From Thermoflexia bacterium (GTDB taxonomy: Bacteria > Chloroflexota > Anaerolineae > B4-G1 > DUEL01), in assembly GCA_011192125.1 (NCBI GenBank), contig DUEL01000005.1:1512-65511 (forward strand): a stretch of 64,000 bases of DNA, in the 5' to 3' direction. A program made the position numbers and the translations under genes. Under the pieces are notes generated by a model that worked only from the letters and a program-made list of their open reading frames with translations, ran no database searches and was not told where the DNA came from. Shown here one piece after another: positions 5,901 through 46,614 of the stretch; within the stretch, counting starts at the first letter, position 1; each line of letters starts with the position of its first letter.

Positions 5901-6150
5901 CACCACGGGGAAAAGAGACGAAAAGGAAGTCAAGGTCACCATCACCGGGTCGGGTTTCGCCCAGGGGGCTACGGCCCGGCTGGAGCGGAAGGACGTGCAA
6001 CCCATTCCGGCCAAGACGGTCCGAATCCTGGACGCAGGGAAGATGGAGTGCGTCTTCGACCTGAAGGGGAGACCCACCGGTGAGTGGGACGTCGTCGTGG
6101 CGATCGGCGATAAGAGCGCGAGGAAGGAAAAGGGCTTCCGGATAACGTGA
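2986..6150 (+). CDS. Large multi-domain membrane protein. It has a signal anchor, an acidic E/P-rich linker, two ~115-aa Ig-like repeats ending PPSGEY.GWLV, two internal TM helices, a PASTA-like domain and an IPT/TIG-like C-terminal domain.
   Basis: Hydrophobic N-terminus; repeated domain pairs; PASTA-like GKTKAEAQRLIAGKF...GTEITIVL; TIG-like TKVNPTTG...VTITGSGF. Confidence 0.55.
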   Translation: MDLFSTRAGRLIAGALALLLLAGAGYATIEGVSFLGNLEDTLSRLGAALASPASPSEGEGATPEPTDEPAEAPTEEEPERVTPEATEGASEETTQPASPIPTPTPIPEDFVVLYPGEGDTVVIDANHPEIQVRLLSREAELKGVRVELLIYQDKAGTPLSPALTSVAVAEGLTLTTTQPVNALLTFANLPPSGEYGGWLVATATNGRTLSRRVNILVSNPTAGEVMLLYPNPTGSDALVISAEHPAAQIRLVNTGIVTTSARVRLTVHQPKEGTPLSPGPVGTTEASIAVLPPNEPTNVTISFQPETLPPSGEYEGWLVIETEDAEPLTQKVTLQISRPAFSIQHRLTGKAEGERAILLTGIRWLPLAPRSITWEPYRMRFWEKDRQEVSFEFLPTELVDGSTGQVGYLNVAPVSSPIEGVTEVDLSIEGVRYPGLYEGLLVVRTAEGWAIEAIHVTARVCDFYIWPFLAIVIGALSIGLLLRAGLRDTKSSIPFQRYLLAVARQRLDAACAASPPTRVCKDIGQKLDQVEMALAFGDVDQARVWLAEAMEAIHNLKTAASHMAAFKAKLEESEAEGEGDLEDVRRKYEAAEIYFQAGDWASLETVLKEAEVALDRSTLMVELDLDRTARLLQQEVGIPHIRGRVTDPSGGERVLEDGGVLYTDETVEFTVSPTDDGVFEWEVWWVRRFYPDKVMARSKEPTSTFTPTFEWAPVHRYPRVCKVTARSDGGLPPFMLSFEIRHPFRIWLPDTVRAGQRVALRLLPERAGERPPKGYRWYVDGVPVDSPHLFKKPGEYQITARAKGRLLAATVVRVHRSLVEIAAKRYKRQACIAILAWAAVAGVIGLIYIAERVPTFGRSWQDYLLALAWGLGVSASVTPKEGVVDAIKKAVGIQPPAKETVPLLKGKTKAEAQRLIAGKFIPKWEPKEAKEDWIVAEQRPSAGTAAKKGTEITIVLQQPKSRPALSITKVNPTTGKRDEKEVKVTITGSGFAQGATARLERKDVQPIPAKTVRILDAGKMECVFDLKGRPTGEWDVVVAIGDKSARKEKGFRIT

Positions 6151-8413: not shown

Positions 8414-8764
8414 ATGGCGAAGAAGCAAGGGCGTCGCAGACACGTCCCACACCGGACCTGCGTCGCCTGTCGGACGGTGCGCCCGAAGCGGGAGTTGATC
8501 CGCGTCGTGCGCACCCCCGAGGGGGAGGTCGCGGTAGATGAGCGCGGCAAGCAGAGCGGCCGTGGCGCCTACCTGTGCCCCCAACGGACCTGCTGGGAGC
8601 AGGCCTTGAGACGCCGCGTCCTCGACCGGGCGCTGAAGGTCTCTTTGGACGGGGAGACGATCGCCGCGTTGCGGGCCTACGCCGAGGGCCTGCCGGAGCG
8701 CATCGAATTGGACGAAGAGGACCTGGCTGCGAAGGAGGAAGTGGATGGGAGAGAAGAGGAATAA
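8414..8764 (+). CDS. ylxR: YlxR/RnpM family RNA-binding protein (DUF448)
   Basis: HVPHRTCVACR...GRGAYLCP motif; conserved position between nusA and infB. Confidence 0.8.
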   Translation: MAKKQGRRRHVPHRTCVACRTVRPKRELIRVVRTPEGEVAVDERGKQSGRGAYLCPQRTCWEQALRRRVLDRALKVSLDGETIAALRAYAEGLPERIELDEEDLAAKEEVDGREEE

Positions 8765-10544
8765 CCGCGTTGTCATCATTCCGGCGTCCCTGACCGTGCG
8801 TGAGCTGGCCCAGTTGCTGGACGTGAGCCCCATCGACGTGATCAAAGAACTGATGAACAACGGCATCATGGCTCACATCAACCAGCAGATCGATTACGAC
8901 ACGGCGGCGATCGTCGCAGCGGAGATGGGGTTCGAACCCCAGGAAGAGACCCCGCCGGAGGTTGAAGAAGCGGAGGCGGAGGGCCCCACCACCCTCTGGG
9001 AACGGCTGTACGCAGGGGAGGACCCCTCCAAACTGCGTCCCCGTCCCCCCGTCGTCACCATCCTGGGCCATGTAGACCACGGCAAGACCTCCCTGCTGGA
9101 CGCGATCCGACAGACCAACGTGGTGGCTTCCGAGGCTGGGGGGATCACCCAGCACATCGGCGCCTACCAGGTCCAGCACCAGGGGCGGACCATCACCTTC
9201 CTCGACACGCCAGGTCACGAAGCGTTCACGGCGATGCGCGCCCGTGGCGCCCAGACCACCGACATCGCCGTCCTGGTCGTCGCCGCCGACGACGGGGTGA
9301 TGCCCCAGACCATCGAGGCCATCAACCACGCCCGGGCCGCCCGCGTCCCCATCATCGTCGCCCTGAACAAGATCGACAAGCCCAACGCCCAGCCCGACCG
9401 GGTCAAGCAGCAACTGAGCGAACTGGGCCTCACCCCGGACGATTGGGGCGGGAACACGCTCTGTGTCCCCGTCTCGGCCAAGCAGCGGATCGGGCTGGAG
9501 GATCTGCTGGAAGCGATCCTCCTGGTGGCGGACGAACAGAACATCCGCGCCAACCCCGATCGACCGGCGGTCGGCACGATCCTGGAGGGTCACCTGGACC
9601 GCACCCGAGGCCCCTCTGCCACCGTGCTGGTCCAGAATGGGACGCTCCGCATCGGGGACGCCATCGTCGCTGGCACCGTGTACGGACGGGTCCGGCAGAT
9701 GCTGGACGACAACGGTAAGCCGATCAAGGAAGCCCCGCCCTCCACACCCGTGCTGGTGTTGGGCCTCTCCGACGTCCCCGTCGCGGGAGACATTTTTGAG
9801 GTCGTGAAAGACGAGCGGACCGCCCGCGCTATCGCCGAGAAGCGGAAGGAGGAACAACAGGTCAGGGCCGCAGCCCCCGCTATGCTGACCCTGGACGACC
9901 TCTCCGCCCGCATCCGCGAGGGAGAGGTCAAGGAACTGAACCTCATCCTCAAGGCGGACGTACAAGGATCTATCGAGCCGATCCTCTCCTCGCTGGAGAA
10001 ACTGGGCGGTGAGGACCTGCGGATCAACGTCATCCACGCCGCCCCCGGTAACATCACCGAGTCGGACGTCAACCTGGCGATCGCCTCCAAAGCGATCATC
10101 ATCGGCTTCCAGGTCACGGTGGATCCCGCCGCCCGGCGGTTGGCGGAGAGCGAGGGAGTGGACATCCGTCTCTACGACGTCATCTACAAACTGATCGACG
10201 AGATGGAGATGGCCCTCAAGGGCCTCCTAGAACCTGCATACGTGGAGAAGGTCATCGGCAAGGCGGAGGTCCGCGCCACGTTCGACATCCCCAAGATCGG
10301 CCGTGTGGCCGGCTGCTACATCCTCGAGGGCGTCGCTCGCCGCAACGCCCGGGCCCGGGTCTTCCGCGGGGAGGAGCAGATCTACGACGGCTACGTCGCC
10401 TCCCTCAAGCGGTTCGCCAAGGACGCGCGGGAGGTGCGCACGGGCTTCGAGTGCGGCGTGGGGCTGGAGAACTTCCACGACATCGAGGAGGGCGACATCA
10501 TCGAGTTCTACGTGATGGAACGGGAGGAACCCGCAACAGCCTGA
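8745..10544 (+). CDS. infB: Translation initiation factor IF-2 (short form, no long N-terminal region)
   Basis: GTPase motifs [25 protein letters not shown]; C-terminal beta-barrel domains. Confidence 0.9.
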
Positions 10545-15853: not shown

Positions 15854-18157
15854 CTACTCGAGGGTGAGATACAGCCTGTAGAAGTCCCGTGCGTACATCT
15901 CATATCCCTCAATGTAGACCCACCAGGTGCCTGCCGCGGGGCTCTCGATCACCGCCCGCTCCGGTGCGTTGCCGCTGACCCCATCTACGGAGGCCAGGTT
16001 GAAGTCGGGATCGAGGATGAACATGTCGATGTCGCTAGTGGGGAACTTGCTCCAGTCGCGATGCCACACCAGATCGAAGGTGGCGGTGCCCACCCCCTCC
16101 GGGATCTCCACCGGGATCAGGAACGCGTCGCCCATCTCGATGTAGCCCGTGGCGATGGGGTGGCGGAGCGGCTGACGGAAGTTCTCCCGCGTGATGCGGA
16201 CCCGGAAACTGACCGGCGCCTCGTTGGAGAAGTCGCCAATGAGGGAGAGCTTCATCAGCCCCGGCTCCATCGGCTGGTAGGTCCAGGGGATCCCCCAGAA
16301 GGTCCACGGCCCGTCCTCGACGACGATGTCGAAGGAGTCGCCGTACCAGAAGGGATACCAGTAGACCCCAATCGGATGCCGGAAGGCGGTCCGCTTCGCG
16401 CTCTGCAGATGGACCTCCAGGGCGTTGGGCCAGTAGGCGTAGGCGGAGTTATCGTCGGTGGTGATGTCGAACACCTCGATCGTCACCTTGCTGGTGTACC
16501 GGTTAACCTCGAAAACGGCGTCGAACGACTCGCTGGGGTTGAGGGTGATGACATCACTCTCCCACACGTCCACCCTGCCCTTCCCGGCCCGCGGCAGCAC
16601 GACGTTGAGATCGGCATACCTGAGGAACGGCACGTACCCCCACGACTTTTCCTTGAGGATCTGAAGGGCGCGCATAGCGTCCACGGCACCCCATCCCATG
16701 TCGTTGATATCCCGCCAAGGCTCTGCCACCGCGTTCGGGTTGGCTCCCTTGAGCAGGACTGCGCGGAACACCAGCGGGTTGGTTTCCCTGCCCTCGGTGT
16801 TCTCCCAGTAGGCGTTGAGCAACGCCGCGACACCGGCTACTGTGGGCGAGGAGAAGGAGGTTCCACCAGCCCAGCGGAGTTCGTTCTCCGGTCCCGCGGC
16901 AAAGTTCCACAGGCCCAGCGCGCTGATGTCCGGCCCGGCCCGCCCGTCGCTCAACGGACCGCGGCTGGAGAAGTTCGCCACGCGGGTCTCGTCCGTAGGA
17001 CGCATCACCATTCCCATACCGGGTCCCTCGTCACCGTTGAAGGGGACACCGTCTACTCCCCGGGTAAGACCGAGGTATTCGTAGAGGACCCGAGACGAGG
17101 GGGCGTAGTCCAGCGCGCCCACGCTGACCGAGTCATATGAAGTCGCGGGCGAACCGACGGAGTTGGGGATCGGCCCCTCGTTCCCCGCAGAGGTGACCAC
17201 CAGGATGTTGGCCGCCTTCAACTCCCGGATGAAGAGGTCGAAAGTGTCCCGCCCGTCGAAGAGGGTCGGGCCGCCGAGGCTCATATTGACGATGTCGATG
17301 TCCAGCAGCCCATCCTTCTTCAAGGTCAAGACGTGATCCAGGCCGTCCAGGATGACCGAGGTGGGCACCCCGCTGCCGTCCTGGGGGAAGACCTTGACCG
17401 GGTACAGGCTTGCCCCGGGGGCCTGCCCAAGGATGGGCACGAAGTCCGGGGGCCAGGGGAGGTACGTGGAGATCGCCTGGTAGAGCGGATTGGTCGGGTC
17501 TTCAAAACCGAGCGCACAGGCAGAGGCGATCACTCCACCAACGTGCGTCCCGTGCCAGTGGTTGCTCGGATCGGTGGCCGGGACTCCGTCGCCGGTGGCG
17601 TTGTAGCCATCGGGGAAACCCGGCGCGCCGATCACAGCGTGCGAGAGGCACACGTTCGGCGTGACCCCCGTATCGACCACGGCGACAACCGTGCCCGCCC
17701 CGTAGTCCGTCGCCTCCCAGACACCGATCGCACCGGTGTATAGGAAGTTGACGTACCCCTCCGGCAAGGCCTCCACGTCGATGGAGAGCGGATCAACCGC
17801 TTGGATATCGACCCCTTCCATCGCTTCCACCGTGTACTCGAGAGGATGCACATCGTCGCCAACGTCGTCCGGCAGATAGACCATCTCATCCTTCTCGATC
17901 AGGGTCACGCCGGGGAACCCCGCCAGGGCCCTCGTCTGATCCACAGGGACGCTCGCAGCGACGACCGGCACGTTCTTATACCGGAAACTGACCGTCCCTC
18001 CGATCGAGACGATGAAATCCAGCAGGGCGTCCACCGAGCCGTCGGTCTGGATCAAGAGATCGATCGTCTCTCCCCCGCCCCCCGCCAGCGCTACAGAGGG
18101 GGTCCACAGGCCGATGAGCAACGCGAGTAGAACAACGGCATACCCCATCCTTCTCAT
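15854..18157 (-). CDS. Secreted S8-family (subtilisin-like) serine peptidase with C-terminal extension domains
   Basis: Catalytic triad motifs VVAVVDTG, HGTHVGGVIAS, GTSFSSPTVAGVAALL. Signal peptide MRRMGYAVVLLALLIGLW; start chosen at that Met. Confidence 0.85.
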   Translation of the reverse strand: MRRMGYAVVLLALLIGLWTPSVALAGGGGETIDLLIQTDGSVDALLDFIVSIGGTVSFRYKNVPVVAASVPVDQTRALAGFPGVTLIEKDEMVYLPDDVGDDVHPLEYTVEAMEGVDIQAVDPLSIDVEALPEGYVNFLYTGAIGVWEATDYGAGTVVAVVDTGVTPNVCLSHAVIGAPGFPDGYNATGDGVPATDPSNHWHGTHVGGVIASACALGFEDPTNPLYQAISTYLPWPPDFVPILGQAPGASLYPVKVFPQDGSGVPTSVILDGLDHVLTLKKDGLLDIDIVNMSLGGPTLFDGRDTFDLFIRELKAANILVVTSAGNEGPIPNSVGSPATSYDSVSVGALDYAPSSRVLYEYLGLTRGVDGVPFNGDEGPGMGMVMRPTDETRVANFSSRGPLSDGRAGPDISALGLWNFAAGPENELRWAGGTSFSSPTVAGVAALLNAYWENTEGRETNPLVFRAVLLKGANPNAVAEPWRDINDMGWGAVDAMRALQILKEKSWGYVPFLRYADLNVVLPRAGKGRVDVWESDVITLNPSESFDAVFEVNRYTSKVTIEVFDITTDDNSAYAYWPNALEVHLQSAKRTAFRHPIGVYWYPFWYGDSFDIVVEDGPWTFWGIPWTYQPMEPGLMKLSLIGDFSNEAPVSFRVRITRENFRQPLRHPIATGYIEMGDAFLIPVEIPEGVGTATFDLVWHRDWSKFPTSDIDMFILDPDFNLASVDGVSGNAPERAVIESPAAGTWWVYIEGYEMYARDFYRLYLTLE

Positions 18158-18280
18158 TGCAAAGCCTCCTCCTTTCGCTAAGGTCCGATCGCTCGACACC
18201 AACCTGCATCCCCAAACGCTAACCTACCCCCCACCGCACCTCCTTTCCACCTTTGAGGTCCGCCCCGGAACCCCTTTTGA

Positions 18281-18345
18281 GGCTTCACATTATAGCACAA
18301 TTATAGCACAACTATGTCTGCATCTTTACGGATAATGTATTAAAA
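18281..18345. promoter_or_regulatory. AT-rich island with direct repeats ATTATAGCACA(A) x2, upstream of the SHMT-GcvT fusion gene
   Basis: cacattatagcacaattatagcacaactatg. Compositionally distinct from the ~68% GC surroundings. Confidence 0.3.
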
Positions 18346-18390
18346 ATTTCCTAAATCCCGTCCAGGTGCTCGCAACAGAAGGAGCTAACG

Positions 18391-18440
18391 GTGGTTTCCA
18401 TCGCAGAGATGCGGAGAGCACAGAGGCTTGTTGCAGCGCC
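18391..18440. repeat. Family-A repeat, partial copy
   Basis: catcgcagagatgcggagagcacagagg. Confidence 0.4.
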
Positions 18441-18506
18441 CCCTGCACCCTCCCGGTGACCCTGGTGTCCGGACTCTTGTCTCAACCTCAGCGCTCCACC
18501 TTGCCC

Positions 18507-18535
18507 CCTTTCCCCGCCGATGCTACAATATCGGC
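18507..18535 (+). promoter_or_regulatory. Putative promoter TTGCCC-N17-TACAAT for the SHMT-GcvT fusion gene
   Basis: 17-bp spacing; -10 TACAAT 44 nt upstream of the ATG; RBS AAGGAG at 18566. Confidence 0.4.
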
Positions 18536-18578
18536 GTTTCACACCATCTCACAATCCACCAACCGAAGGAGTTGCACG

Positions 18579-21500
18579 ATGCCGTCCGGAGATCCTCGAT
18601 CCAAGTCGGACTTTCTTTTCCGCGCTGACCTTGAAGAGATCGCCCCGTTCGTCGCCGAACTGATCCGCTGGGAGGCGGAGCGGCAGGCCCGCAAACTGAT
18701 CCTCATCCCCTCTGAGTCGTACGCCCCAAAAGCGGTCCGTGAGGCCCTGGGCTCCGTTTTTCAGAACGTCTACGCCGAAGGGTACCCGCCGCTGCGGATG
18801 ACCCGCGATCCGGAGGTCCGATTGCGGGACGTGGCCTGGCAGTTGGCCTTCTACCGCCGTTACGCCGACCGGCGGTTCTACAAAGGGGTGGACTACGTCC
18901 ACTTCGTCGAGTGCCTGGCCCAGCGGCGGTGCGCCGAACTGTTCGCCCACGACGGCCTGCGCCCCGAGCACATCTACGTCAACGTCCAGCCCCTCTCCGG
19001 CGCGGCGGCCAACCTGGCCGTCTACCAGGCGCTGATGGAGCCGGAGGACGTCCTGATGGGGATGGACCTCTACCAGGGCGGCCACCTGACCCACGGCTCG
19101 GAGTTCAACCTCTCCGGCCAGCGATACCGGGTGGTCTCCTACGGGGTCGATCCCAAGACGGAACGGCTGGACTACGACCAGATCCGGGATCTAGCGCGGC
19201 AACACCGCCCGAAGGTGATCGTCGCCGGGTACACGTCGTACCCCTGGGCGCCGGACTGGCACGCCTTCCGGGAGATCGCCGACGAGGTGGGGGCCTACCT
19301 GATGGCGGACATCGCCCACACCGCAGGGATGGCCGCTGCCGGGGTCTACCCCAACCCCGTCGGCATCGCCGACGTGACCGTCTTCACCACCCACAAGACG
19401 ATCTGCGGGCCGCGCGGCGCGGTCATCCTCACCACCGACGAGGGACTGGCCCAGGCGATCGACATGGCGATCTTCCCCGGCGAGCAGGGCGGTCCCCACG
19501 TCAACAAGTTCGCCGCGATGGCGGTCGCCTTCCGCATCGCCCAGACGGAGGAGTTCCGCCGCCTGCAGCACCAGATCGTCGCCAACGCCCGCGCCCTGGC
19601 GGAGGGGCTCCAGAAGCGAGGGCTGAAACTGGCCTACGGCGGCACCGACACCCACCTCCTGCTCATCGACCTGAAGTCGATCCCCTCCGACACCGGCTTC
19701 CCCCTGTGGGGTGAGCCAGCGGTCCGCATCCTCGACCTGGTCGGGATCGTCGCCAACAAGAACACCATCCCCGGCGACACCGAGACCGCGCTGGCCACAG
19801 GGGTCCGGCTGGGAACCCCCTGGGTCACCCAGCGCGGGCTCGACGAGGCGGATATGGACACCCTCGCCGGGCTCATCCACAAGGTCCTGACCAACATCAA
19901 GCCCTTCGCCTACAACGGCCTCATCGGCACCCTCCCGCGCGGCAAGATCGATCTGGACGTGATGGAAGAAGTGCGGGCAGGGGTAGCGGAGTTGGCGGAG
20001 AAGGCGGGGATCGATTTTGAGTACACAAAGAGCGGATACCCGCACTTCTGGGAAGCGGGGATGCAGGGAAACGATGGAGGGACACACAGCCGTGCGCCCC
20101 GTGCCCTGCGGGTGACGGGCTGGCGGGCGCGGCAGTTCGTCCAGCAGGTGGTGACGGCGAACGTCGCCGAACTGGCCCCCGGCGAGTCGGCAGAGGCATA
20201 TATGCTCGACCGGCACGGCGGTCTCATCGCCGAGGTGACGGTGGAGCGGGAGGAGCCGGACCGGTGGGGGCGGGATCGCTACCTGATCACACCGGCCTCC
20301 AACGGCGCGCGGGTCGCCGCCTGGCTGCGGGCCCTCTCCGACGGGTACACACTGTTCGACGAGGAGGACGTGTTCCGGAAGGTGGAGGGGCCGGTGGTGG
20401 TGGAGGAGATACCTCACCCCTCCCCCGCCGCCTCCGGCGGCACCCCCTCCCCTCTCCCATCTGGGAGAGAGGAGGGGGCCGGGGAGTGGGGTGAGGTCCT
20501 GGCCACCCACCCGGAGCGGTTCGACCTGACCAAGCCGTACTTCGTGGGCCAGGCGCATCTGAGAGCGTTCGCGCCGAAGGTCGAGCGGGAGGAGTGGCAC
20601 TGGGAGGAGCCGGAGGCCCCCCTGAAGCGGACGCCGCTGTACGAGGTCCACAAGCGGATGGGCGCCAAGATGGTCCCCTTCGCCGGGTGGGAAATGCCGG
20701 TCTGGTACACCTCGGTGAGCGAGGAGCACCGGGCGGTGCGGGAGGCCGCCGGCCTGTTCGACGTAGCCCATATGGGGGTGTTCGAGATCACCGGTCCGCA
20801 CGCCACTGCCTTCCTGGACACGGTCTGTTCCAACTACGTCGCCTGGCTGGAGGACGGCCAGTCCCTCTATGGCTACCTGCTCGACCCCGACGGGCGGGTG
20901 ATCGACGACGTGATGATCTACCGGCTCCGGGCCGACCACTACCTGATGGTGGTCAACGCGGCCAACGAGGAGAAGGACTGGGACTGGCTGAACGCGGTCA
21001 ACGAGCGGCGGGTGGTCATCGACCGGGACCGGCCCTGGGTGCAGGTGGAGGCCCAGGCGGTGCTGCGCAACCTGAAGGACCCGGCCTCCGGCGAGCGGCA
21101 GAAGCGGGACCTGGCGTTGCAGGGACCTGCGTCATTGCCCACCCTCCAGGCGCTGACCAACGACCCGGACGTGAAGGCCGCACTGCGCAGACTGCGCCGG
21201 ACCGAGTTGATGGAGTGCGAACTGGCGGGGATCCCGCTGGTGGTGGCCCGCACCGGCTACACCGGCGAGGAGTGGGGGTTTGAGATCTTTGTCCACCCCG
21301 ACGACGCCCCTCGGCTGTGGGAGGCCATCCTGGAGGCGGGAGAGGCCTTCGGCGTGAAGCCGTGCGGCCTGGGCGCGCGGGACAGCCTCCGCACCGAGGC
21401 CGGACTTCCCCTCTACGGCCACGAACTGGCCGGCCCGTTCGACATCTCCCCCATTGAGGCCGGCTTCCCCGGCTACGTCAAGTACCACAAGCCGTTCTTC

Positions 21501-21872
21501 GTCGGCCGCGACCCGCTCCTGGCCCGGGAGAAGGACCGCAGGCGGGAGGTCATCCGCTTCCGGGTCAACGAGAAGGGCGTCCGCATCCCCCACCTGGGCG
21601 ACCCCGTGGTCAACCGGAAGGGGCAGCAGATCGGCCACGTGACCAGTTGCTCCATCGACGTCGAGGGGTATCTGGTAGGGATGGCGATCGTCGAGAAGCG
21701 GTACAACGTGCCGGAGACCCCCATCGCCGTCTTCCCCCTGGGCGGCAAGTCGCTGGACGAGGCGCTGCTGCGCGGCAAGCGGGTCGCCCTGCCGGTGGCG
21801 GCGACGGTGTTGACGCGGTTCCCAGAAAGGGAAGAGGGGAGACCGAGGATGAGAATGGGTGGGGAGGATTAG
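18579..21872 (+). CDS. Fusion protein. N-terminal serine hydroxymethyltransferase-like PLP domain, a middle GcvT-like partial domain, and a C-terminal complete aminomethyltransferase (glycine cleavage T protein).
   Basis: SHMT motifs LIPSESY...YAEGYP and the PLP-Lys motif [13 protein letters not shown]. GcvT motifs [26 protein letters not shown]...LFDVAHMG. Single continuous 1098-codon frame from the ATG at 18579. Confidence 0.8.
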
Positions 21873-21874: not shown

Positions 21875-22597
21875 ATGAGACGAGAGACCTTCGACATCCT
21901 GTTTCTTGTGGCCCGTCCGGCGGCGGGGAAGAGCGAGATCATCGATTATCTCACACGGACGGACGTGGAGGAGCGGCGGCGCCGGTTCCACATCGGCCCC
22001 TTCGAGGTACTGGACGACTTCCCGATGCTCTGGACCTGGTTTGAGGAGGACGCGATCCTGCGCAGGATGGGCTACCCCGGCCTCCACACCGACGAGGAGG
22101 GATACTTCAAGTATCCGTACCTCTGGCACCTCCTCATCGAGCGGCTGGCGCTGGAGTTCCAGAAGCGAGAGCGGGATCGACCGCCCGACCAGGAGGTCAC
22201 CACCATCGTGGAGTTCTCCCGAGGCAGCCCGTCGGGCGGCTACCGGGAGGCCTTCCGCCACTTCCCGGAGGAGATGCTGGCACGGGGTGCGATCCTGTAC
22301 GTGCGGGTCTCCTACGAGGAGTCGCTGCGGAAGAACCGGCTCCGGTTCAACCCGGACCGGCCCGACTCCATCCTGGAGCACAGCCTGCCGGACGAGAAGA
22401 TGGAGCGACTGTACAAGGAGGACGACTGGGATGATTTCACGTCGGCGGACCCGGAGTATGTGGAGGTGAAGGGGGTGCGAGTGCCCTATGCGGTGTTTGA
22501 GAACGAAGATGACGTGACGACGGAGCGAGGGGAACCGCTGGGGCAGCGGTTGGAGGTCGTTCTGGACCAGCTCTGGGCGATCTGGTCCCGCAGGTGA
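21875..22597 (+). CDS. P-loop kinase-fold hypothetical protein (Walker-A-like ARPAAGKSE)
   Basis: LFLVARPAAGKSEIIDYL near the N-terminus; ATG overlaps the upstream stop (TGATG). Confidence 0.55.
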   Translation: MRRETFDILFLVARPAAGKSEIIDYLTRTDVEERRRRFHIGPFEVLDDFPMLWTWFEEDAILRRMGYPGLHTDEEGYFKYPYLWHLLIERLALEFQKRERDRPPDQEVTTIVEFSRGSPSGGYREAFRHFPEEMLARGAILYVRVSYEESLRKNRLRFNPDRPDSILEHSLPDEKMERLYKEDDWDDFTSADPEYVEVKGVRVPYAVFENEDDVTTERGEPLGQRLEVVLDQLWAIWSRR

Positions 22598-22601: not shown

Positions 22602-22670
22602 TGTTTCACCGCAGAGATGCAAAGGGCGCAGAGGTTTCCACGGTTTTTCGCAAAGGTAAAGAGACGATGC
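22602..22670. repeat. Family-A repeat (degenerate right arm)
   Basis: tttcaccgcagagatgcaaagggcgcagagg. Confidence 0.5.
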
Positions 22671-23665
22671 GGAAAGGCGTATCTACTCGACCACCCGTCT
22701 TCGTCACTCGCCCCATCCCCGAGGCCGGCCTCCGCCGGGTGCGGGACGCCTGCGAGGTCCGGATGTGGGAAGGGGAACTACCTCCACCCAAGGAGGTGAT
22801 CCTCAAAGAAGTGGCCGAATGTGAGGGCTTGCTTTGCCTGCTGACCGACCCCATCGACGCGGAGGTGGTCGGCGCCGGAAGACACCTTCGGGTGATCAGC
22901 CAGATGGCTGTGGGGGTCGACAACATCGACCTGGAGGCCGCCACGGCGCGGGGGATCCCCGTCGGCCACACACCAGGGGTCCTCACCGAGGCCACCGCCG
23001 ACCTGACCTTCGCCCTGCTCCTCGCCGCCGCACGGCGCATCCCGGAGGGGATCGAGTACGTCCGCCAGGGACGGTGGCGCACCTGGGAGCCGATGGTCCT
23101 CCTCGGGAGGGAGGTCTGGGGGAAAACGCTGGGCATCGTCGGACTGGGGCGCATCGGGACGGCGGTGGCCCGCCGCGCGCGGGGGTTCGCGATGCGGGTC
23201 CTCTACCACAGCCGAAGCCGCAAGCCGGATCTGGAGGCGGAACTGGGCGTGGAGTACACGCCGCTGGACGACCTGCTGGCTCAGGCCGACTTCGTCAGCC
23301 TCCACTGCCCGCTGACCCCCGAGACCCACCACCTCATCGACGAGGAGGCGCTGCGCCGGATGAAGCCGACGGCGATCCTGATCAACGCCGCCCGCGGGCC
23401 GGTGGTGGATACCGACGCGCTGCTGCGGGCGCTGCGGGAAGGCTGGATCGAGGCGGCCGGTCTCGACGTCACCGACCCCGAGCCGCTGCCGGCGGACCAC
23501 CCCCTGCTCGACCTCCCCAACTGCATCGTCATCCCCCACCTGGGCAGCGCGACGGTCGCTGCAAGGGAACGGATGGCGACGATGGCGGCGGAGAACCTGC
23601 TGGCAGGGCTGCGTGGGGAGCGGCTGCCGTACTGCGCGAATCCCGAGGTCTACGAGGCCAGATGA
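22667..23665 (+). CDS. D-isomer-specific 2-hydroxyacid dehydrogenase (glyoxylate/hydroxypyruvate reductase-like)
   Basis: NAD-binding GxGxxG ([13 protein letters not shown]), catalytic [20 protein letters not shown]. Confidence 0.8.
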
Positions 23666-23681
23666 CTGGGGTGACTGGAAA

Positions 23682-24095
23682 ATGGGACGAGTGATCTCCA
23701 CGGAAGGACCAGGGAAGATACGGAATCAGCATCGGCGGACGATCGCCGAGGTGTTGCGGATTTTGAGCCAGAAGCGGGAACTGGACGAGGAGGTGAAGGA
23801 CCTGGCCGCCGTCATCGTCTTCTCGCTCCACGGCATCGCCGACACGGTGGAGCAGACGACGGCGGCATGGGATAAGAGGAACTATTACCTCAAGGCCGAC
23901 CGGTTCCGACGGGAGTGGGCCTGGGTCGAGGAGGCGATCGAGGAACTGAGCGACCTCATCTACCGGGGACGTTGGGAGCATCTCCCCGCCTTCCTGGCCC
24001 GGTTGGCCCCCCGCTTCGCCGACGTGAAGGTATCCCGCCTGACCCGCAACCCATCCCTTTGGAAAGGGGCCTACCAGCGCTTCATGCAGGAATGA
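23682..24095 (+). CDS. Hypothetical protein (137 aa)
   Basis: ORF with no recognisable motif; followed by a strong palindrome. Confidence 0.4.
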   Translation: MGRVISTEGPGKIRNQHRRTIAEVLRILSQKRELDEEVKDLAAVIVFSLHGIADTVEQTTAAWDKRNYYLKADRFRREWAWVEEAIEELSDLIYRGRWEHLPAFLARLAPRFADVKVSRLTRNPSLWKGAYQRFMQE

Positions 24096-24203: not shown

Positions 24204-25529
24204 CTAGAGCCGTTCCTCCGGCCCGACGGGCAGCGCCACCAGGCCGCTGATCACCTTGGGATAGAAGTCGGTGGACTTCTGCGGCATCCGCTCGCTGGCG
24301 GCGGTGCAAGCCCGCACCTGCTCGATGCGGGTGGGGTTCATCAGCAGCAGGAACTGGGCCTCCCCCTTGTCCACCGCCGCAAAACCGGGCGTGGGATCGC
24401 GCAGGTAGTCGATGTTCTCCTTCCGCTTGACCGCCTCTTTGTCGATCCCCAGCACCCGCTCGATGAACAGTTCGTGCAGGACCACCACGTCCAGCATCCG
24501 CCAGTCGGCAGCGCGGTCGGGCAGGAGTTGGGCCATCACGCCTGGATCGCGCAACTCCAGCACCGCGTAGGCCCCGTCGTAGAAGCCGAAGCGCGGGTGG
24601 TCGGGCCTAGCCTCCGCCAGCGCCTTCTCCACCGCCGCCCGGTCCGAAGCGGGCGTCACCTCGAAGTACTCCTTCGCCTTCTCCAACGCCGCCTTCCCAT
24701 CCATCCGGGTGTAGGAGTGGATGAGCCGGTGGGTGGGGAGGATCACAAGACCCGGATCGCTCATACTGACCAGCGTGACCATCGTGTAGTTGAAGGCGGC
24801 GTCGGCGGGGGCGTCCGGGTATTTCTGGCGCATCTCGTCCCGGAAGGTGAGCGCGGTCTCGTACCGGTGGTGCCCGTCGGCGATGATCAGGTTCCGCTTG
24901 GGGGCCATCTCCTCTGCCACAGCCCGGATCACCTCCGGATCGTCCACCACCCAGAACCGCTGTTCCACCGCGCTCTCGATCACCTGCTCCCGCGCGACGA
25001 TCGGCTCGTGCGTCTCCAGATAGGACTGGAGAATGGAGTTGACACGGTTCTCGTCGTCGGGGTAGAGGATGAAGATGTGCCCCCAGGCCGTCTCGGTGGC
25101 GCGGAACAGGTTCAGCCGATCCACCTTGGGACCGGAGAGGGTCCGCTCGTGGGGGAGGATCACCCCCTCGTCGAAACGGGTCAGTTGGAGCGCGGCGCTG
25201 AACCCCCGGCGGGTGCGGGTCTCGCCGGTCGGCGTGGTGTAGGTCTGCTCCAGGACGTAGATCGCCGGCCGCTCCTCCCGCATCAACACTCCCTCCGCCA
25301 ACCAGGTACGGGCGTAGCAGCGAGCGCGGGTATAGACATTGTCCGTCTCGCTATCCCACGGCGTCGCCTTGCCCCGGATGATGCGGACGAAGTTGTAGGG
25401 GCTCAGTTCGTAGTACCGCTCCTGCTGCGGCTCGTGGATGCGGTCGTAGGGCTGGGTGATCACCTTCGAGAGGTCGCCGACCTTCTCGACGTTGTAGCGC
25501 AATCCGCGAAACGGTTTCACAATCGCCAT
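24204..25529 (-). CDS. DUF1015 family protein
   Basis: N-terminal MAIVKPFRGLRYN typical of DUF1015. True start is MAIVKPF; the ORF extension MSSVSLWW comes from the repeat element. Confidence 0.7.
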   Translation of the reverse strand: MAIVKPFRGLRYNVEKVGDLSKVITQPYDRIHEPQQERYYELSPYNFVRIIRGKATPWDSETDNVYTRARCYARTWLAEGVLMREERPAIYVLEQTYTTPTGETRTRRGFSAALQLTRFDEGVILPHERTLSGPKVDRLNLFRATETAWGHIFILYPDDENRVNSILQSYLETHEPIVAREQVIESAVEQRFWVVDDPEVIRAVAEEMAPKRNLIIADGHHRYETALTFRDEMRQKYPDAPADAAFNYTMVTLVSMSDPGLVILPTHRLIHSYTRMDGKAALEKAKEYFEVTPASDRAAVEKALAEARPDHPRFGFYDGAYAVLELRDPGVMAQLLPDRAADWRMLDVVVLHELFIERVLGIDKEAVKRKENIDYLRDPTPGFAAVDKGEAQFLLLMNPTRIEQVRACTAASERMPQKSTDFYPKVISGLVALPVGPEERL

Positions 25530-25639: not shown

Positions 25640-26323
25640 CTAAAACTCCGCCTTGTAGAACGACACCACGGTCACCACGTAGGCGATCATCTTCGGCAGC
25701 ATCAGCATCCCCGCGATGGGGTACCGGTCGACGAAGAGGATGGTGCCGAGGTAGCAGGTGAAGGAGACGATCACCGACCACCCGGCGACGGTCAGCCATT
25801 TACTTCCGGCGCGCAGGAACATCCCGGCGAGGACGAACCCGGCAAAAGCAAAGGGGATATTCCGGTAGATACGCCACGCGGGGGCCGGGCCACCCCAGTT
25901 GTTCTGGGGGAAGAAGAGAAGCACCACACGCACCGCCAGCGCTGCCACCACCAGCCACTCTACCCAGGTCCACGGATGGCCCGTCTTCTCCTGGCGGTAC
26001 AGGAGGGCGAAAAGATAGAAGAAAGTAAGCGTGAAGGAGGTGGCGAAGGAGCCGACGCCGAGCCAGGAGACCAGGTAGCCGCCCCAGTGGAGGGCGATCG
26101 CCTCCACACTGGAGAGGGTCCGGTGGGCGTAAGCGACGATGTGGACCGTGTCGCCGAGGATCAGCGTGACCACCGCCGCCAGCAGCCAGCGACTGCTCCT
26201 CTGCTGCTCCGGCGACTGCTGCCCGTACCGCCTGATCATCAACGCGGCGACGGTCAGGATGCTCGCCAGGTAGGCGAAGTTGAGCAGATTGACGACGATC
26301 CCCATAGGTCCGGTGGTAGGCAT
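25640..26323 (-). CDS. Integral membrane protein (about 6 TM helices), hypothetical
   Basis: Hydropathy pattern; lies in the riboswitch-controlled operon. Confidence 0.5.
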   Translation of the reverse strand: MPTTGPMGIVVNLLNFAYLASILTVAALMIRRYGQQSPEQQRSSRWLLAAVVTLILGDTVHIVAYAHRTLSSVEAIALHWGGYLVSWLGVGSFATSFTLTFFYLFALLYRQEKTGHPWTWVEWLVVAALAVRVVLLFFPQNNWGGPAPAWRIYRNIPFAFAGFVLAGMFLRAGSKWLTVAGWSVIVSFTCYLGTILFVDRYPIAGMLMLPKMIAYVVTVVSFYKAEF

Positions 26324-26391: not shown

Positions 26392-27306
26392 CTACCCCAT
26401 CCTCTGCGCGAACTCGATGGCGATGCGGGCCACCTCCTCGCCCACGCGGGCCTTCGCTTCTTTGGTCCCCGCACCGATGTGGGGCGAGCCGATGACCTGT
26501 GGCAACTCCATCAGCCGCTTGCCCCGGTCCTCCTTCTCGTCCTCGAACACGTCCAGCGCTGCCCCCGCCACCTTGCCGCTGACGATAGCGTCGTACAGCG
26601 CCCCCTCGTCCAGCGTTCCGCCCCGGCCACAATTGATGATATAGACCCCGTCCTTCATCTTGGCGAACTCCTCCGCGCCGATGAGGTAGTGGGTCTCCGG
26701 GGTGTGGGGGACGTGGAGGGAGATGAAGTCGGAGCGGGCCAGGAGTTCGTCCAGGGAGACCTGGGTAGCGCCGGGGACCTCGACCCGGGTGCGGCGGTAG
26801 TAGATGACCTCCATCCCCAGCGCGGCCGCCTTCTGGGCCACCAGGCTCCCGATCCGACCGCAGCCCACCAGCCCCAGTGTCTTCCCGGCCAGTTCGATCC
26901 CCTTACTGAAGGCCTTCTTCTCCCACTTTCCTGCCTTCATCGACGCGGTGGCCTGGGGGATCTGCCGGGCCAGGGCGAAGAGGTAGCCGATGGTCAACTC
27001 GGCCACCGAGTTCGAGGAGGCGGCCGGGGTGTTGCGCACCTCGATCCCTTTCGACTGGGCGTACTCCACGTCGATGTTATCCAGCCCCACCCCACCGCGG
27101 ATGATCAACTTCAGGTTGGTCGCTTTGTCGATGAGGGGAGCACGGACCTTGGTGCGGCTGCGGACGACGATGGCGTCGTAGTCATCGATGACCGCCTCCA
27201 GTTCCTCCGGCGAGATGTCGTCCCGCACGTCCACCTCGATCCCCGCCTCGCGCATCGCAGCGATGGCTTTTTCATCGGTTGGGTCGCAGATCAGGAGCCT
27301 CATCAT
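26392..27306 (-). CDS. Short-form D-3-phosphoglycerate dehydrogenase-like 2-hydroxyacid dehydrogenase (no ACT domain)
   Basis: GGVGLDNIDVEYAQSKGI...GLVGCGRIGSLVA; catalytic His region HIGAGT. Confidence 0.8.
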   Translation of the reverse strand: MMRLLICDPTDEKAIAAMREAGIEVDVRDDISPEELEAVIDDYDAIVVRSRTKVRAPLIDKATNLKLIIRGGVGLDNIDVEYAQSKGIEVRNTPAASSNSVAELTIGYLFALARQIPQATASMKAGKWEKKAFSKGIELAGKTLGLVGCGRIGSLVAQKAAALGMEVIYYRRTRVEVPGATQVSLDELLARSDFISLHVPHTPETHYLIGAEEFAKMKDGVYIINCGRGGTLDEGALYDAIVSGKVAGAALDVFEDEKEDRGKRLMELPQVIGSPHIGAGTKEAKARVGEEVARIAIEFAQRMG

Positions 27307-27319: not shown

Positions 27320-28387
27320 TTACAATCCCAGAATATCGTTGATCTGCTCCAACAGCCACTTGATGTCCTCCACCGTCAGGTCGCCCATGTGTGCGATACG
27401 GAAGCACTTTTCCTTCAGATCACCGTAGCCGTTGGAGATGATGGCACCCCGCTTGCGCAGTTCCTCGTTCAGCCCGGCGACGCTGATGCCGCGGGTGTTC
27501 TTGACATTGGTAACGGTGAGGGAGAGGTACCGCTCGTCGGAGTAGAGGGCGAAGTACTCGCGGGCCCAGTCCTGCACGATGGCCGCCATATCCTTGTGCC
27601 GCTGCCACCGGTTCTCCAGCCCCTCGGCCAGGATGTCGTCCATCTGCTTGTTGAGGGCCCAGATCAGGCTGATCGCAGGGGTCGCCGGGGTCTGGTGCTT
27701 CTCGTACTTCTTATCCATCTGCTCGTAGGAGAAATAGTAGCCCGGATTGGCGACCTGCCTGGCCCGTTCCCGCGCCCGGTCGCTCACCGCGCAGACCGTC
27801 AGCCCAGGCGGGAGGGCGAAGCACTTCTGCACACCAGCCAGGCAGACATCCAGCCCCCAGGCGTCGAACTCGATCTTCACCCCGGCCATACAACTGACCG
27901 CGTCCACCAGGATGAGCACGTCGGGGTACTTGTCGTGGATGAGGGCGGCGATGTCCTTGACCGGGTTCATCACGCCGGTGGAGGTCTCGTTCATCACGAT
28001 GGTCACCGCGTCGTACTCGCCGCTGGCCAGCGCCTCATCCACCATCTCCGGCGTGATCGCCTGCCCCATCGGCACCTCGATCTTGTCGCAGGGGATGCCG
28101 TTCGCCTTGGTGATCTGGTGCCACCGCTTGGAGAAGGCACCGCAGACGGTGTTGAGAACCTTCTTGGTGGAGGCCTGCCGGACCGAACCCTCCATCACGC
28201 CGGTTGACGAAGAGGTGTAGAGGTAGACCCGCTGCGTGGTGTAGAGAAGTTTCTGGAGTTTGGGGGTCACCTCAGCCTGCAGCGCCGAGTACTCCGGCGT
28301 CCGATGGCCGATCATCGGGACCGTCTGAGCCTGCAGAACCTCCTCCCGAACGTGCGTCGGACCGGGGATAAACAGTTTCGGATACAT
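27320..28387 (-). CDS. Class-V aminotransferase (serine-glyoxylate / alanine-glyoxylate / phosphoserine aminotransferase family)
   Basis: MYPKLFIPGPT N-terminus; PLP-Lys motif GVQKCFALPPGL. First gene downstream of the glycine riboswitch. Confidence 0.8.
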   Translation of the reverse strand: MYPKLFIPGPTHVREEVLQAQTVPMIGHRTPEYSALQAEVTPKLQKLLYTTQRVYLYTSSSTGVMEGSVRQASTKKVLNTVCGAFSKRWHQITKANGIPCDKIEVPMGQAITPEMVDEALASGEYDAVTIVMNETSTGVMNPVKDIAALIHDKYPDVLILVDAVSCMAGVKIEFDAWGLDVCLAGVQKCFALPPGLTVCAVSDRARERARQVANPGYYFSYEQMDKKYEKHQTPATPAISLIWALNKQMDDILAEGLENRWQRHKDMAAIVQDWAREYFALYSDERYLSLTVTNVKNTRGISVAGLNEELRKRGAIISNGYGDLKEKCFRIAHMGDLTVEDIKWLLEQINDILGL

Positions 28388-28435: not shown

Positions 28436-28660
28436 AAGAAAAAAGGGGAACGCACGACCGGCATGCATTCCCCCTGTCCACGACCTGAGAGATTCCCCAC
28501 CCTCCGCCGGAGGGCGGGTTGCCCCGTCGGTGCCCGGCGGGCTCTCCAGGGGTGGCTACGACACGGGGTCCTTTTACCTGAGAGTTTCACCGACGACGTC
28601 CGGTCCCCACCGTCGGCTTGCCCCTTCGGTGCCTCCGACGAGGTCTCTCCCCCGTGTCCG
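28436..28660 (-). promoter_or_regulatory. Tandem glycine riboswitch (two aptamers) with an intrinsic-terminator expression platform
   Basis: Minus-strand aptamer 1: GGGGGAGAGACC...GGCACCGAAGGGGCAAGCC...GUGAAACUCUCAGGUAAAAGGAC. Aptamer 2: CUGGAGAGCC...GCACCGACGGGGCAACC...GAAUCUCUCAGGUCGUGGACAGGGG. Then terminator GGGGAATGCA-N9-TGCGTTCCCC + TTTTTTCTT, then RBS GAGGAGG and the ATG. Confidence 0.88.
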
Positions 28661-28699
28661 CCACGGACGATCAATTTACTCTTTGGATCGACAGAGCCC

Positions 28700-28727
28700 A
28701 TTGTAGCAAATCCTTCCGAGATGTCAA
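28700..28727 (-). promoter_or_regulatory. Promoter TTGACA-N16-TACAAT driving the glycine riboswitch
   Basis: Exact -35, near-consensus -10, about 35 nt upstream of the aptamer 1 P1 stem. Confidence 0.5.
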
Positions 28728-28774: not shown

Positions 28775-29587
28775 ATGGCAAACAGGTATCCACTTGCGAC
28801 CTGGCGACTCGTCCTCTCCCCCCCGGCCGACGGGGCCACCCATATGGCGGTGGACGAGGCGATCTGGGAGGCCGTCGCTGTCGGTCGGGCTCCCCCCACC
28901 CTACGCCTCTACTCCTGGTCGCCCCCCTGTCTCTCGCTGGGGCGCAACCAGCCCGTGACGACGGTCAATCGGCAGGCCCTGCGGGAACGGGGATACGACC
29001 TGGTCCGCCGTCCCACCGGCGGGCAGGCCGTCCTCCACATCGACGAACTGACCTACAGCGTGATCCTCCCCCTCTCCGACCCCCGTGCCCAGGGAGGCAT
29101 CCTGGAAAGTTGTGAGCGCCTCAGCGCCGGGCTGGTCCGCGCTCTGGAAATCCTCGGCGTGGCGGGAGCCGTCGCCCGCCGCCGTCCCCACCCCCCTCAG
29201 GCCCGCGGCCCGGTCTGCTTCGAGACTACCGCCGACTTCGAGGTCGCCGTCGGCGGAAGGAAACTGATCGGCAGCGCGCAGCGCCGAGGGCGCGGGACCC
29301 TCCTCCAGCATGGCGCGCTCCCCCTCTGGGGGGACATCACCCGCATCTGCCCCCTCCTCGTCCCCCCGGCGGACCCCCAGCGAGTGGCCGCACGCGCCAC
29401 GACGCTGGAGGCGGTCCTTAGTCACCGTATCTCTTGGGAGAGGGCTGCGGAGGCGATGATAGAAGGATTCGCCCAGGCACTGAACCTCCGCCTGGAACCC
29501 GACGGACTGACGCCGGAGGAGCGCCAGCGTGTCGAGCAACTCCGGCAGGAGAAGTACGCCAGCGAAGGGTGGACCAGCCTGGTCTAG
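28775..29587 (+). CDS. Lipoate-protein ligase / octanoyltransferase (BPL_LplA_LipB family)
   Basis: LYSWSPPCLSLGRNQ, RRPTGGQAVLH, the conserved Lys region, and GRKLIGSAQRR. A possible leaderless start: TAAAAT -10 ends 9 nt before the ATG. Confidence 0.75.
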   Translation: MANRYPLATWRLVLSPPADGATHMAVDEAIWEAVAVGRAPPTLRLYSWSPPCLSLGRNQPVTTVNRQALRERGYDLVRRPTGGQAVLHIDELTYSVILPLSDPRAQGGILESCERLSAGLVRALEILGVAGAVARRRPHPPQARGPVCFETTADFEVAVGGRKLIGSAQRRGRGTLLQHGALPLWGDITRICPLLVPPADPQRVAARATTLEAVLSHRISWERAAEAMIEGFAQALNLRLEPDGLTPEERQRVEQLRQEKYASEGWTSLV

Positions 29588-38640: not shown

Positions 38641-38935
38641 TTCCCCTCCTTGCAACACAGAGTCTCTTAAAGAAAACCCCCGCGCCCCTTGGGGCGCGGG
38701 GGTCTCCCACGCGGTTCCACCCAAGTTCGGCGGTGAAGCGACTCACCGCCGCACTCTGAGGCTGTAACGGGCCTTCCCGGAGCCCCATACTCTCGCCGAA
38801 GCGATTTCAAGGGCCCACTCCCGGGGGGTTTTCCCGACCGTCCGGTCAAGGGGGCTTCCAGCCACGACCCCCTCTCTCTGGGACCTTCTCAGGCCGGTAC
38901 TCGTCCCGGTCAACGCTTTCACACTCTCGATTGTG
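38641..38935 (-). promoter_or_regulatory. T-box leader (Thr-specific) upstream of thrS
   Basis: T-box sequence AACUUGGGUGGAACCGCGUGGGAGACC with a UGGA bulge (discriminator U of tRNA-Thr). Overlapping terminator CCCGCGCCCC-AAGG-GGCGCGGGGG + UUUUCUUU. Stem I region contains ACC (Thr codon). Confidence 0.75.
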
Positions 38936-46579: not shown

Positions 46580-46614
46580 TGCTCCAGGCGAGTGTACCAC
46601 AGGTTCATAGAAGC

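Follow-up and report, generated by a model that had tools for sequence, protein, structure and literature searches.

A widespread natural fusion of serine hydroxymethyltransferase and the glycine-cleavage T-protein, found in a Thermoflexia genome

The window analysed here is a stretch of 64,000 nucleotides from a Thermoflexia bacterium (contig DUEL01000005.1 of the assembly GCA_011192125.1). A single gene at positions 18579–21872 of its plus strand (1097 codons and a stop codon) codes for a chain of three parts: a complete serine hydroxymethyltransferase (SHMT), a decayed copy of the folate-binding domain of the glycine-cleavage aminomethyltransferase (GcvT, or T-protein), and a complete GcvT. 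The fusion is genuine and widespread and joins two textbook enzymes; annotation under a single name has concealed it, and we found no published study of it. The decayed third domain and an invariant insertion close to the SHMT active site are its unexpected features. The protein is most likely a bifunctional T-protein and SHMT, which, together with separately encoded H, P, and L proteins, would link the cleavage of glycine to the synthesis of serine; we put this reading at roughly 70%.

The reading frame has no stop codon across 18366–21872, and the ATG at 18579 matches the N-termini of the homologues. A Shine-Dalgarno sequence GAAGGAG was read directly 7 nt 5' of this codon (18566–18572, plus strand). 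A promoter-like TTGCCC-17-TACAAT with a TG extension (18501–18529, plus strand), which is a consensus match only, is separated from the ATG by about 50 nt, and the same hexamers are found 5' of a riboswitch-controlled orthologue (locus L019; related loci are given by such numbers below). The encoded protein is identical over 1097 aa to the NCBI entry HEY74907.1, which comes from a Thermoflexia contig of 81,168 bp in a metagenome-assembled genome (MAG) and is annotated as "GcvT" alone.

The initial annotation of this DNA described one uninterrupted frame encoding both enzymes, and this was confirmed. The Pfam scan of the open reading frame (ORF) found PF00464 (SHMT; 1.6e-122, 409.4 bits, cut-off 27) together with PF01571 (GCV_T; 1.8e-93, 312.9 bits, cut-off 25.6). 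The NCBIfam models of SHMT (NF000586, 432.6 bits against a cut-off of 335) and GcvT (TIGR00528, 293.1 against 235.85; NF001567, 334.6 against 300) were passed as well. The third family named for the domain scan, PF08669 (GCV_T_C), reached 18.2 bits and stayed under its cut-off of 25.9. The motifs quoted in the initial annotation were found in their places, namely YAEGYP at aa 65–70, the 12-residue motif of the cofactor lysine at aa 269–280, and a 26-residue stretch of the T-protein at aa 685–710.

The SHMT catalytic domain comprises aa 1–440 (18579–19898, plus strand), as indicated by PF00464, NF000586, Foldseek, and the matches to solved SHMTs in the PDB (E 1e-103 to 1e-105). The lysine that holds pyridoxal 5'-phosphate (PLP) is K273, and the residues S45, Y65, E67, Y101, H169, H172, D244, H247, T270, H272, R279, N395, and R410 are present. 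In the alignment with E. coli GlyA, all 19 landmark residues of the reference sequence have their published numbers. Residues S35, Y55, E57, Y65, S97, G98, H126, H129, D200, H203, T226, H228, K229, R235, P258, N347, and R363 of GlyA are kept in the fusion, and the only landmark changes are S99 to Ala and S175 to Thr (E. coli numbering). A His-to-Leu change at 'QPLSG' was considered as the loss of the PLP-stacking histidine and rejected, since the alignment puts the stacking His (E. coli H126) at the conserved H169 in 'GGHLTHG'.

The checked catalytic and cofactor residues of both enzymes are conserved among the full-length relatives. In all 71 full-length fusions, which represent six phyla, 15 SHMT active-site residues and seven T-protein residues are identical wherever the ORF covers the position; the ORFs of L058 and L061, which are N-terminally incomplete or frame-broken, do not reach the first SHMT positions. 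The invariant residues include those of the PLP site (K273, T270, H272, D244, H247, H169, and R279), those of the substrate carboxylate and folate chemistry (S45, Y65, E67, Y101, N395, and R410, corresponding to E. coli S35, Y55, E57, Y65, N347, and R363), and D777, Y764, Y781, Y894, E902, and R934 of the T-protein part.

The SHMT part had been called divergent, with an insertion after YAEGYP, and the alignment with E. coli GlyA confirmed the insertion. The insertion has 26 residues (aa 71–96; 18789–18866, plus strand), is predicted to be helical, and belongs to the most conserved stretches of the protein (mean column conservation 0.94–0.95); L89, Y92, R93, R94, Y95, D97, and R99–G103 are invariant in 100 sequences of 57–94% identity. 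A second insertion of seven residues is located near aa 126–132. The domain is followed by a conserved C-terminal extension without a counterpart in E. coli GlyA (aa 441–480; 19899–20018, plus strand), a beta-hairpin and a helix carrying the motif PFAYNG..LPRGK, with predicted strands at 441–446 and 451–457, a helix at 459–476, and a confidence of about 90 on the predicted local distance difference test (pLDDT).

The complete GcvT occupies aa 682–1097 (20622–21869, plus strand), as supported by TIGR00528, NF001567, PF01571, Foldseek, and the solved structures 1yx2 and 1woo. It aligns end to end with the T-proteins of B. subtilis and T. maritima represented by these two structures (E 1e-68 to 1e-70). 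The catalytic residue is D777, accompanied by M732, Y764, Y781, Y894, E902, R934, and R1002; in the numbering of the T. maritima protein, M51, Y83, D96, Y100, Y188, E195, and R227 are kept. R1002 is invariant in the family and aligns with the Arg of 'EKGVLRNE' in the E. coli T-protein, which we take to be the H-protein contact Arg292. An insertion of about 20 residues (aa ~809–843) has no equivalent in T. maritima GcvT. The profiles of the fusion families that have an H-independent T-like domain stay far under their cut-offs: 178.3 against 1100 for Tdm, 155.4 against 1164 for SoxA, and 78.8 against 410 for DmdA.

The middle domain (aa 505–611; 20091–20411, plus strand) was recognised by PF01571, self-comparison, and alignment as a truncated and decayed copy of the GcvT folate-binding domain. 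The initial annotation had placed a partial GcvT of roughly 200 aa here; the partial segment is real, and its Pfam match is confined to aa 510–591, which correspond to GCV_T profile positions 51–128 (5.8e-11). The segment shares 26% identity over 102 aa with the GcvT domain of the same gene (tblastn, E 4e-7) and folds confidently in the predicted structure (pLDDT 89–96). The equivalent of the catalytic Asp is E552, and E, Q, K, R, or T is found at this position across the window's clade, which indicates that the middle domain is a pseudo-enzyme module in the window's protein. A second active T-protein was considered for this clade and ruled out by E552, its variability, and the deletion of half of the domain. 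Most likely, the middle domain now acts as a structural spacer or docking module.

The origin of this domain can be followed in relatives of about 1230 aa, in which the middle region is a nearly complete GCV_T (profile positions 1–238 of 255, 1.3e-38). Such domains are encoded at 7989–9161 of the archaeal locus L075, 7983–9095 of L041 (Chloroflexota), and 4055–5191 of L083 (Phycisphaerales). In these relatives the domain is degenerate only in part. Most of them retain the Asp-Asp motif; D96 is kept in 19 of the 23 long-form domains, E195 in 16, and R227 in 14, and Y83, Y100, and H50 are replaced. In the window's protein, the second half of this domain is replaced by a poorly conserved, low-complexity Pro/Ser/Gly linker (aa 612–645; 20412–20513, plus strand), with pLDDT below 50 at aa 616–634. 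The linker is followed by a ten-residue remnant (aa 649–658; 20523–20552, plus strand) with invariant Y654 and G657, homologous to the ten residues that open the C-terminal barrel of the T-protein. The middle and C-terminal domains also share an insertion that is not found in T. maritima GcvT. The alignment and the near-complete middle domain of the long relatives indicate an ancestral order SHMT, GcvT-like, GcvT that arose by internal duplication, of which the window's version is a deletion derivative.

The structure of the whole 1097-aa chain was predicted as a monomer using AlphaFold 2 (AF2) with 100 diverse homologues, giving a pLDDT of 85.3 and a predicted TM-score (pTM) of 0.85. The disordered segments were aa 1–4, 300–306, 493–505, 616–634, and the C-terminal tail. 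A pTM of 0.85 for three modules means a confidently predicted, fixed mutual arrangement, and the confinement of disorder to short linkers argues for the same; the chain is thus predicted to be one compact body. A first run with 61 close homologues had given a pLDDT of 69.7 and a pTM of 0.59, and no conclusions were drawn from it. In the Foldseek comparison, the SHMT half matched solved SHMTs (TMt 0.74–0.78), and the GcvT half matched 1yx2 (TMt 0.84–0.85, root-mean-square deviation 3.2–3.4 Å). No solved chain found by Foldseek spanned more than one third of the model (best TMq 0.32).

To judge how common the fusion is, homologues were collected from several sources. The 120 best database clusters all have 1012–1123 aa, 72–100% identity, and both Pfam domains, and they stem from independent NCBI, JGI, ENA, and Logan assemblies; orthologous fusions, a BLAST search for which had been proposed in the initial annotation, therefore exist in at least 120 clusters. 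At the 50% identity level, about 65–70 of the best 150 representatives are full-length fusions of 1000–1340 aa with 37–59% identity. A scan of one genome per species in GTDB with the linker-specific motifs WLR[GAD]L[SA]DGY and PFAY.... matched at least 598 stretches, of which at least 580 were confirmed, so that the three-part architecture is present in at least 580 species. The best 80 loci come mostly from Anaerolineae and Thermoflexales and also from Fraserbacteria, Aerophobetes, Spirochaetota, Planctomycetota, and archaea of the Thermoplasmata/Methanomassiliicoccales. The order SHMT, middle domain, GcvT was found in every locus with a complete ORF (71 full-length ORFs). The carriers among the best 120 hits of a second homologue search were MAG or metagenome proteins only, with no cultured organism.

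Several genomes have a pair of full-length paralogous fusions, which are about 50% identical and encoded in tandem or close to each other (L004, L020, L043, L050, and L009 with L079). The pairs are often tandem or flank the riboswitch operon described below, as exemplified by L004 (10001–13279 and 19317–22604) and L020 (3292–6600 and 6675–9938), and both copies keep all the catalytic residues. SHMT is an obligate dimer with shared active sites, so heterodimers of tandem paralogues are conceivable.

The sequences themselves are not new to the databases. Thousands of these fusion proteins have been deposited, each named as just one of the two enzymes; the JGI labels are 'glycine hydroxymethyltransferase' or 'GCS T protein'. 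The initial annotation did not know this architecture as a described enzyme, and in agreement with this no paper on a natural SHMT–GcvT fusion was found in the full-text literature, a search whose coverage leaves out most subscription journals, so that a prior mention is possible.

Neighbouring genes were clustered across 84 loci and the cluster representatives were then scanned. In L051, a glycine riboswitch is followed on one strand by an unknown gene, the fusion, gcvH, gcvPA, and gcvPB. The order in L060 is glycine riboswitch, aminotransferase, fusion, transketolase-like gene, gcvH, gcvPA, gcvPB, and an LplA-like gene. In the archaeal locus L082, the fusion is followed by gcvH, and in L041, L045, L048, and L081 it adjoins a convergent gcvH-gcvPA-gcvPB cluster. 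The association with gcvH and gcvP was thus seen in seven loci, all of them relatives at 47–61% identity. There is no separate gcvT in any related locus examined, and the presence of the fusion in the gcvT position is the strongest evidence for its C-terminal domain as a working T-protein. In L019, the start codon of an orthologue of 81% identity directly follows a leader made up of a promoter, two glycine aptamers in tandem, a terminator, and a ribosome-binding site. As a separate observation, the transketolase-like gene between the fusion and gcvH in the glycine-riboswitch operon of L060 (10544–12601, plus strand) codes for a three-domain enzyme of the thiamine pyrophosphate-dependent type.

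In the window, the fusion belongs to an island that is conserved in its clade. A gene for a D-2-hydroxyacid dehydrogenase resembling glyoxylate/hydroxypyruvate reductase (GyaR-like; 22667–23665, plus strand) was identified by Pfam, with NF009714 at 430 bits (cut-off 455). No other neighbour is as conserved in the window's clade, and orthologues of at least 69% identity are found just downstream of the fusion in 13 loci. The riboswitch operon lies 2.3 kb downstream of the stop codon of the fusion and is encoded on the minus strand. Its first gene codes for a class-V aminotransferase (AGXT/SerC-like; 27320–28387, PF00266), for which the best NCBIfam matches are BhcA-like and serC_3-like, all under cut-off, and which recurs in nine loci at 71–85% identity. 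This is followed by a short gene resembling 3-phosphoglycerate dehydrogenase (SerA-like; 26392–27306; TIGR01327 356.8 bits, under the cut-off of 454), conserved in nine loci at 70–81% identity, an unknown ORF (25640–26323), and, as the last gene, a DUF1015 (SerBK) gene (24204–25529; PF06245, 3.2e-89), present in ten related loci. The operon is not a gcv operon. A 2026 preprint reports that DUF1015 (SerBK) takes the place of SerB, probably as a serine kinase, that serine utilisation in Bacteroides depends on it, and that it serves both the synthesis and the use of serine (bioRxiv 10.1101/2024.10.14.618325). The island of the fusion, the GyaR-like gene, a small unknown ORF, and the riboswitch operon recurs in 9–13 loci of the window's clade. 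This small ORF (23613–24095, plus strand; about 140–160 aa) has no family match, shows 50–67% identity in 11 related loci, and is located there between the GyaR-like and SerBK genes.

The leader of the operon contains a strong promoter-like TTGACA-16-TACAAT (28700–28727, minus strand; 11 of 12 matches) and a tandem glycine riboswitch with two aptamers (28464–28662, minus strand; RF00504, 66.9 and 42.2 bits, gathering score 32). Aptamer 2 abuts an intrinsic terminator hairpin of 14 bp with a U-tract, the expression platform (28443–28475, minus strand). Of the nine clade-A/B loci scanned, L004, L019, L020, L025, and L028 have an equivalent riboswitch. The 3' strand of P1 of aptamer 2 (AGGGG), assigned by comparison with aptamer 1, is also the 5' arm of the terminator, and the terminator forms in the ligand-free minimum free energy structure; both point to a glycine-ON switch. 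Control of a 'serine pathway' operon by glycine suggests that the operon runs from serine to phosphoglycerate, and with the fusion linked to it, a route of glycine assimilation through serine to phosphoglycerate is suggested. Divergently from the operon, the window encodes a protein of the lipoate-protein-ligase family (28775–29587, plus strand; PF21948, 1.4e-34, NCBIfam LplA matches under cut-off), and its homologues end the gcvH-gcvP clusters of L041, L045, L048, and L060. As such an enzyme would lipoylate the H-protein, this implies that a lipoylated H-protein exists, though it is encoded outside the window.

Several other features of the window were recorded. A 239-aa P-loop ORF with a Walker-A-like ARPAAGKSE (21878–22597, plus strand) starts 6 nt past the stop codon of the fusion; it matches no Pfam or NCBIfam family and is missing from all 84 related loci. 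A gene for 5-formyltetrahydrofolate cyclo-ligase is located 24 kb from the fusion (46016–46825, minus strand), and 5-formyltetrahydrofolate is a known side product of SHMT. The window also contains a T-box leader (RF00230, 105.6 bits; 38687–38922, minus strand) 5' of a threonyl-tRNA synthetase gene (36853–38724), and two large plus-strand ORFs of 1054 aa (2986–6150) and 690 aa (85–2157) that have a coding-like GC content at third codon positions and no Pfam family at E<=1e-5. Consistent with an anaerobic or facultative host, the window also encodes the anaerobic ribonucleotide reductase NrdD, which has an ATP-cone (58597–62034, plus strand).

We propose the following scheme for the bifunctional T-protein/SHMT. 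The T part would take the aminomethyl group from the lipoylated H-protein and release NH3 and 5,10-methylenetetrahydrofolate (methylene-THF), which the SHMT part would combine with a second glycine to give serine, returning tetrahydrofolate (THF). The net reaction would be 2 Gly + NAD+ + H2O -> Ser + CO2 + NH3 + NADH, and it would be reversible. By means of the aminotransferase, the SerA-like protein, and SerBK of the riboswitch-controlled operon, together with the GyaR-like enzyme, serine would then enter central metabolism as 3-phosphoglycerate, either through phosphoserine or through hydroxypyruvate and glycerate, in a glycine-induced route. Both domains are very likely catalytically competent, and the T domain quite probably serves the glycine cleavage system (GCS). 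The glycine riboswitches and the gcvH and gcvP genes beside the orthologues are consistent with the glycine-to-serine direction, which we slightly favour as the physiological one in this organism. The initial annotation expected the fusion to channel the one-carbon unit and to be an obligate machine turning two glycines into serine. A direct hand-over of methylene-THF between the two sites is plausible, though we would not expect it on balance, and the obligate character would be a further assumption.

A number of points weigh against this proposal. The GCV_T_C match stays under the Pfam cut-off, although the region still aligns with 1woo and 1yx2. Neither gcvH, gcvP, and lpd nor a second SHMT or GcvT was found in the 64-kb window by Pfam scans of about 48 ORFs and tblastn with L051 probes. 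No glycine or THF riboswitch, or any other, was detected 5' of the window's own fusion (cmscan of 18150–18650, E<=10). The synteny is not universal either, a possibility ruled out by the unrelated neighbours of the fusion in L001 and L003, and the ON polarity of the riboswitch is read from its sequence design alone. Finally, channelling is sensible only for the interconversion of two glycines and serine. In serine catabolism or in the reductive glycine pathway, both sites handle the same folate species, and the fusion could merely fix the stoichiometry.

A stronger form of the proposal is a dedicated glycine-to-serine synthase, in which methylene-THF would never leave the enzyme and would pass from the T site to the SHMT site of one dimeric particle. 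A conduit or a folate 'parking' site would then be formed by the invariant SHMT insertion together with the duplicated T-like middle domain, and the tandem paralogue pairs might form heterodimers. The middle domain of the long relatives still keeps the Asp-Asp, Glu, and Arg residues of the folate site in most cases. We regard this form as tentative and rather unlikely.

Among the other explanations, the one that survives best is a bifunctional enzyme without channelling that runs in the opposite direction as a housekeeping supply of one-carbon (C1) units. Here SHMT would split serine produced by the nearby SerA-like, SerC-like, and SerBK enzymes, and the T part would take part in cleaving the resulting glycine, so that both would load THF with C1 units and the fusion would secure nothing more than equal dosage and co-regulation. 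The vicinity of an operon resembling the phosphoserine pathway agrees with this, as does the plain, riboswitch-free promoter of the window's copy; moreover, neither the window nor any related locus examined has a further glyA or gcvT, so that the cell may have no SHMT besides the fusion. However, the fusion or its operon lies behind a glycine riboswitch in L019, L051, and L060, as does the operon of the SerC-like, SerA-like, and SerBK genes, both in the window and in five of the nine clade-A/B loci. The expression platform looks glycine-ON, which fits glycine consumption better than serine biosynthesis, and the compact predicted architecture (pTM 0.85) and the invariant insertion suggest more than co-expression. 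We therefore consider the C1-supply function distinctly unlikely.

It is improbable that the fusion is a module of the reductive glycine pathway for formate and CO2 assimilation in anaerobes, in which the T part would make glycine from methylene-THF, CO2, and NH3 and SHMT would add a second methylene-THF to give serine. Both reactions are known to be reversible, the carriers belong mostly to anaerobic lineages (Anaerolineae, Aerophobetes, Spirochaetota, Phycisphaerae, and Thermoplasmata), and the window encodes the anaerobic ribonucleotide reductase. On the other hand, the neighbourhood of the fusion, in the window as in the related loci examined, showed no gene for Fhs, FolD, formate dehydrogenase, or serine deaminase; both sites would consume methylene-THF, leaving no gain from a hand-over; and glycine-ON control is more typical of catabolic gcv operons.

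Still less probable, to the point of being very doubtful, is that one half is not a working enzyme, with the T-like part being an H-independent scavenger of formaldehyde or methylene-THF, or the SHMT part a dimerisation scaffold. GcvT-like modules that capture C1 units are known in other fusions (PDB entries 9q59, 1pj5, 2gag, and 4p9s were matched), and the protein already contains one decayed T-like domain. Against this, the C-terminal domain passes the GcvT equivalog cut-offs and is far under those of Tdm (178 vs. 1100) and SoxA (155 vs. 1164), no checked catalytic residue of either half varies across phyla, seven loci have gcvH next to the fusion, and the invariant Arg aligns with the E. 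coli residue presumed to contact the H-protein. An assembly or frameshift artefact joining glyA and gcvT, for which there is only the general possibility inherent in any MAG, has a negligible probability and is ruled out, since hundreds of independent assemblies show this architecture uninterrupted and with the linker domain in place (at least 120 clusters, about 65–70 full-length clusters at 50% identity, at least 580 GTDB species, and 71 full-length ORFs).

Amino-acid metabolism and one-carbon metabolism are connected by two central gates, SHMT and the glycine cleavage system. The direct passage of methylene-THF between them is debated for plant photorespiration, and the question of this hand-over is also relevant to the engineering of the reductive glycine pathway. 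An ancient and widespread natural fusion offers a ready-made system for studying it; its assets are the rigidity predicted for its architecture, the additional pseudo-T domain, and the insertion next to the SHMT active site, which is invariant. Meanwhile, since thousands of the fusions are named as a single enzyme, glyA or gcvT will be wrongly scored as missing when the pathways of Anaerolineae and other uncultured anaerobes are reconstructed.

Compared with GlyA (EC 2.1.2.1; PDB 1dfo, 1kkj, and 2dkj), the SHMT part has the same fold, is 43–45% identical to the SHMTs of Thermus, Geobacillus, and Enterococcus, and keeps the PLP-lysine motif and all the checked catalytic and folate residues. It differs by the 26- and 7-residue insertions, the 40-residue C-terminal extension, and the approximately 620 further residues joined to it covalently. 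The extension and the extra residues of the N-terminal half are shared with the long SHMTs of NF010094/PRK13580 (about 496 aa; profile positions 169–483 match aa 157–475). The score of 340.7 against a cut-off of 735 shows that the fusion is not a member of this family, whose proteins are not fused to GcvT. A stand-alone long SHMT-like protein with the same insertion after YAEGYP and the same C-terminal extension was also observed (P0236, 486 aa); its active site is altered (NIDAEGF, TYKT, and FPRLQSAP), so that it is possibly a pseudo-enzyme or an enzyme with another activity.

The T part passes the family cut-offs of GcvT (EC 2.1.2.10; PDB 1woo, 1yx2, and 3a8i) and stands in the gcvT position in relatives; GcvT is otherwise a free monomer, whereas here it is the C-terminal third of a 1097-aa chain. 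A T-like folate domain fused to a catalytic domain handling C1 units is also found in dimethylglycine oxidase (DMGO) and dehydrogenase, the alpha subunit of sarcosine oxidase (SoxA), and the TMAO demethylase Tdm, where one site takes up what the other produces, which is a precedent for intramolecular C1 transfer. Those proteins pair an H-independent T-like domain with an oxidase or demethylase, whereas here the partner is the folate enzyme SHMT and the T domain resembles a true GcvT, as judged from the profiles and the adjacent gcvH in relatives.

The closest functional parallel may be the photorespiration of plant mitochondria, in which glycine decarboxylase and SHMT convert two glycines to serine, CO2, NH3, and NADH, with methylene-THF going from the T-protein to SHMT. 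The plant enzymes are separate proteins that share a folate pool, whereas the fusion would, by analogy, carry out the same overall chemistry in one polypeptide. If it were a dedicated synthase, its covalent linkage would be a natural answer to the coupling for which plants rely on separate proteins.

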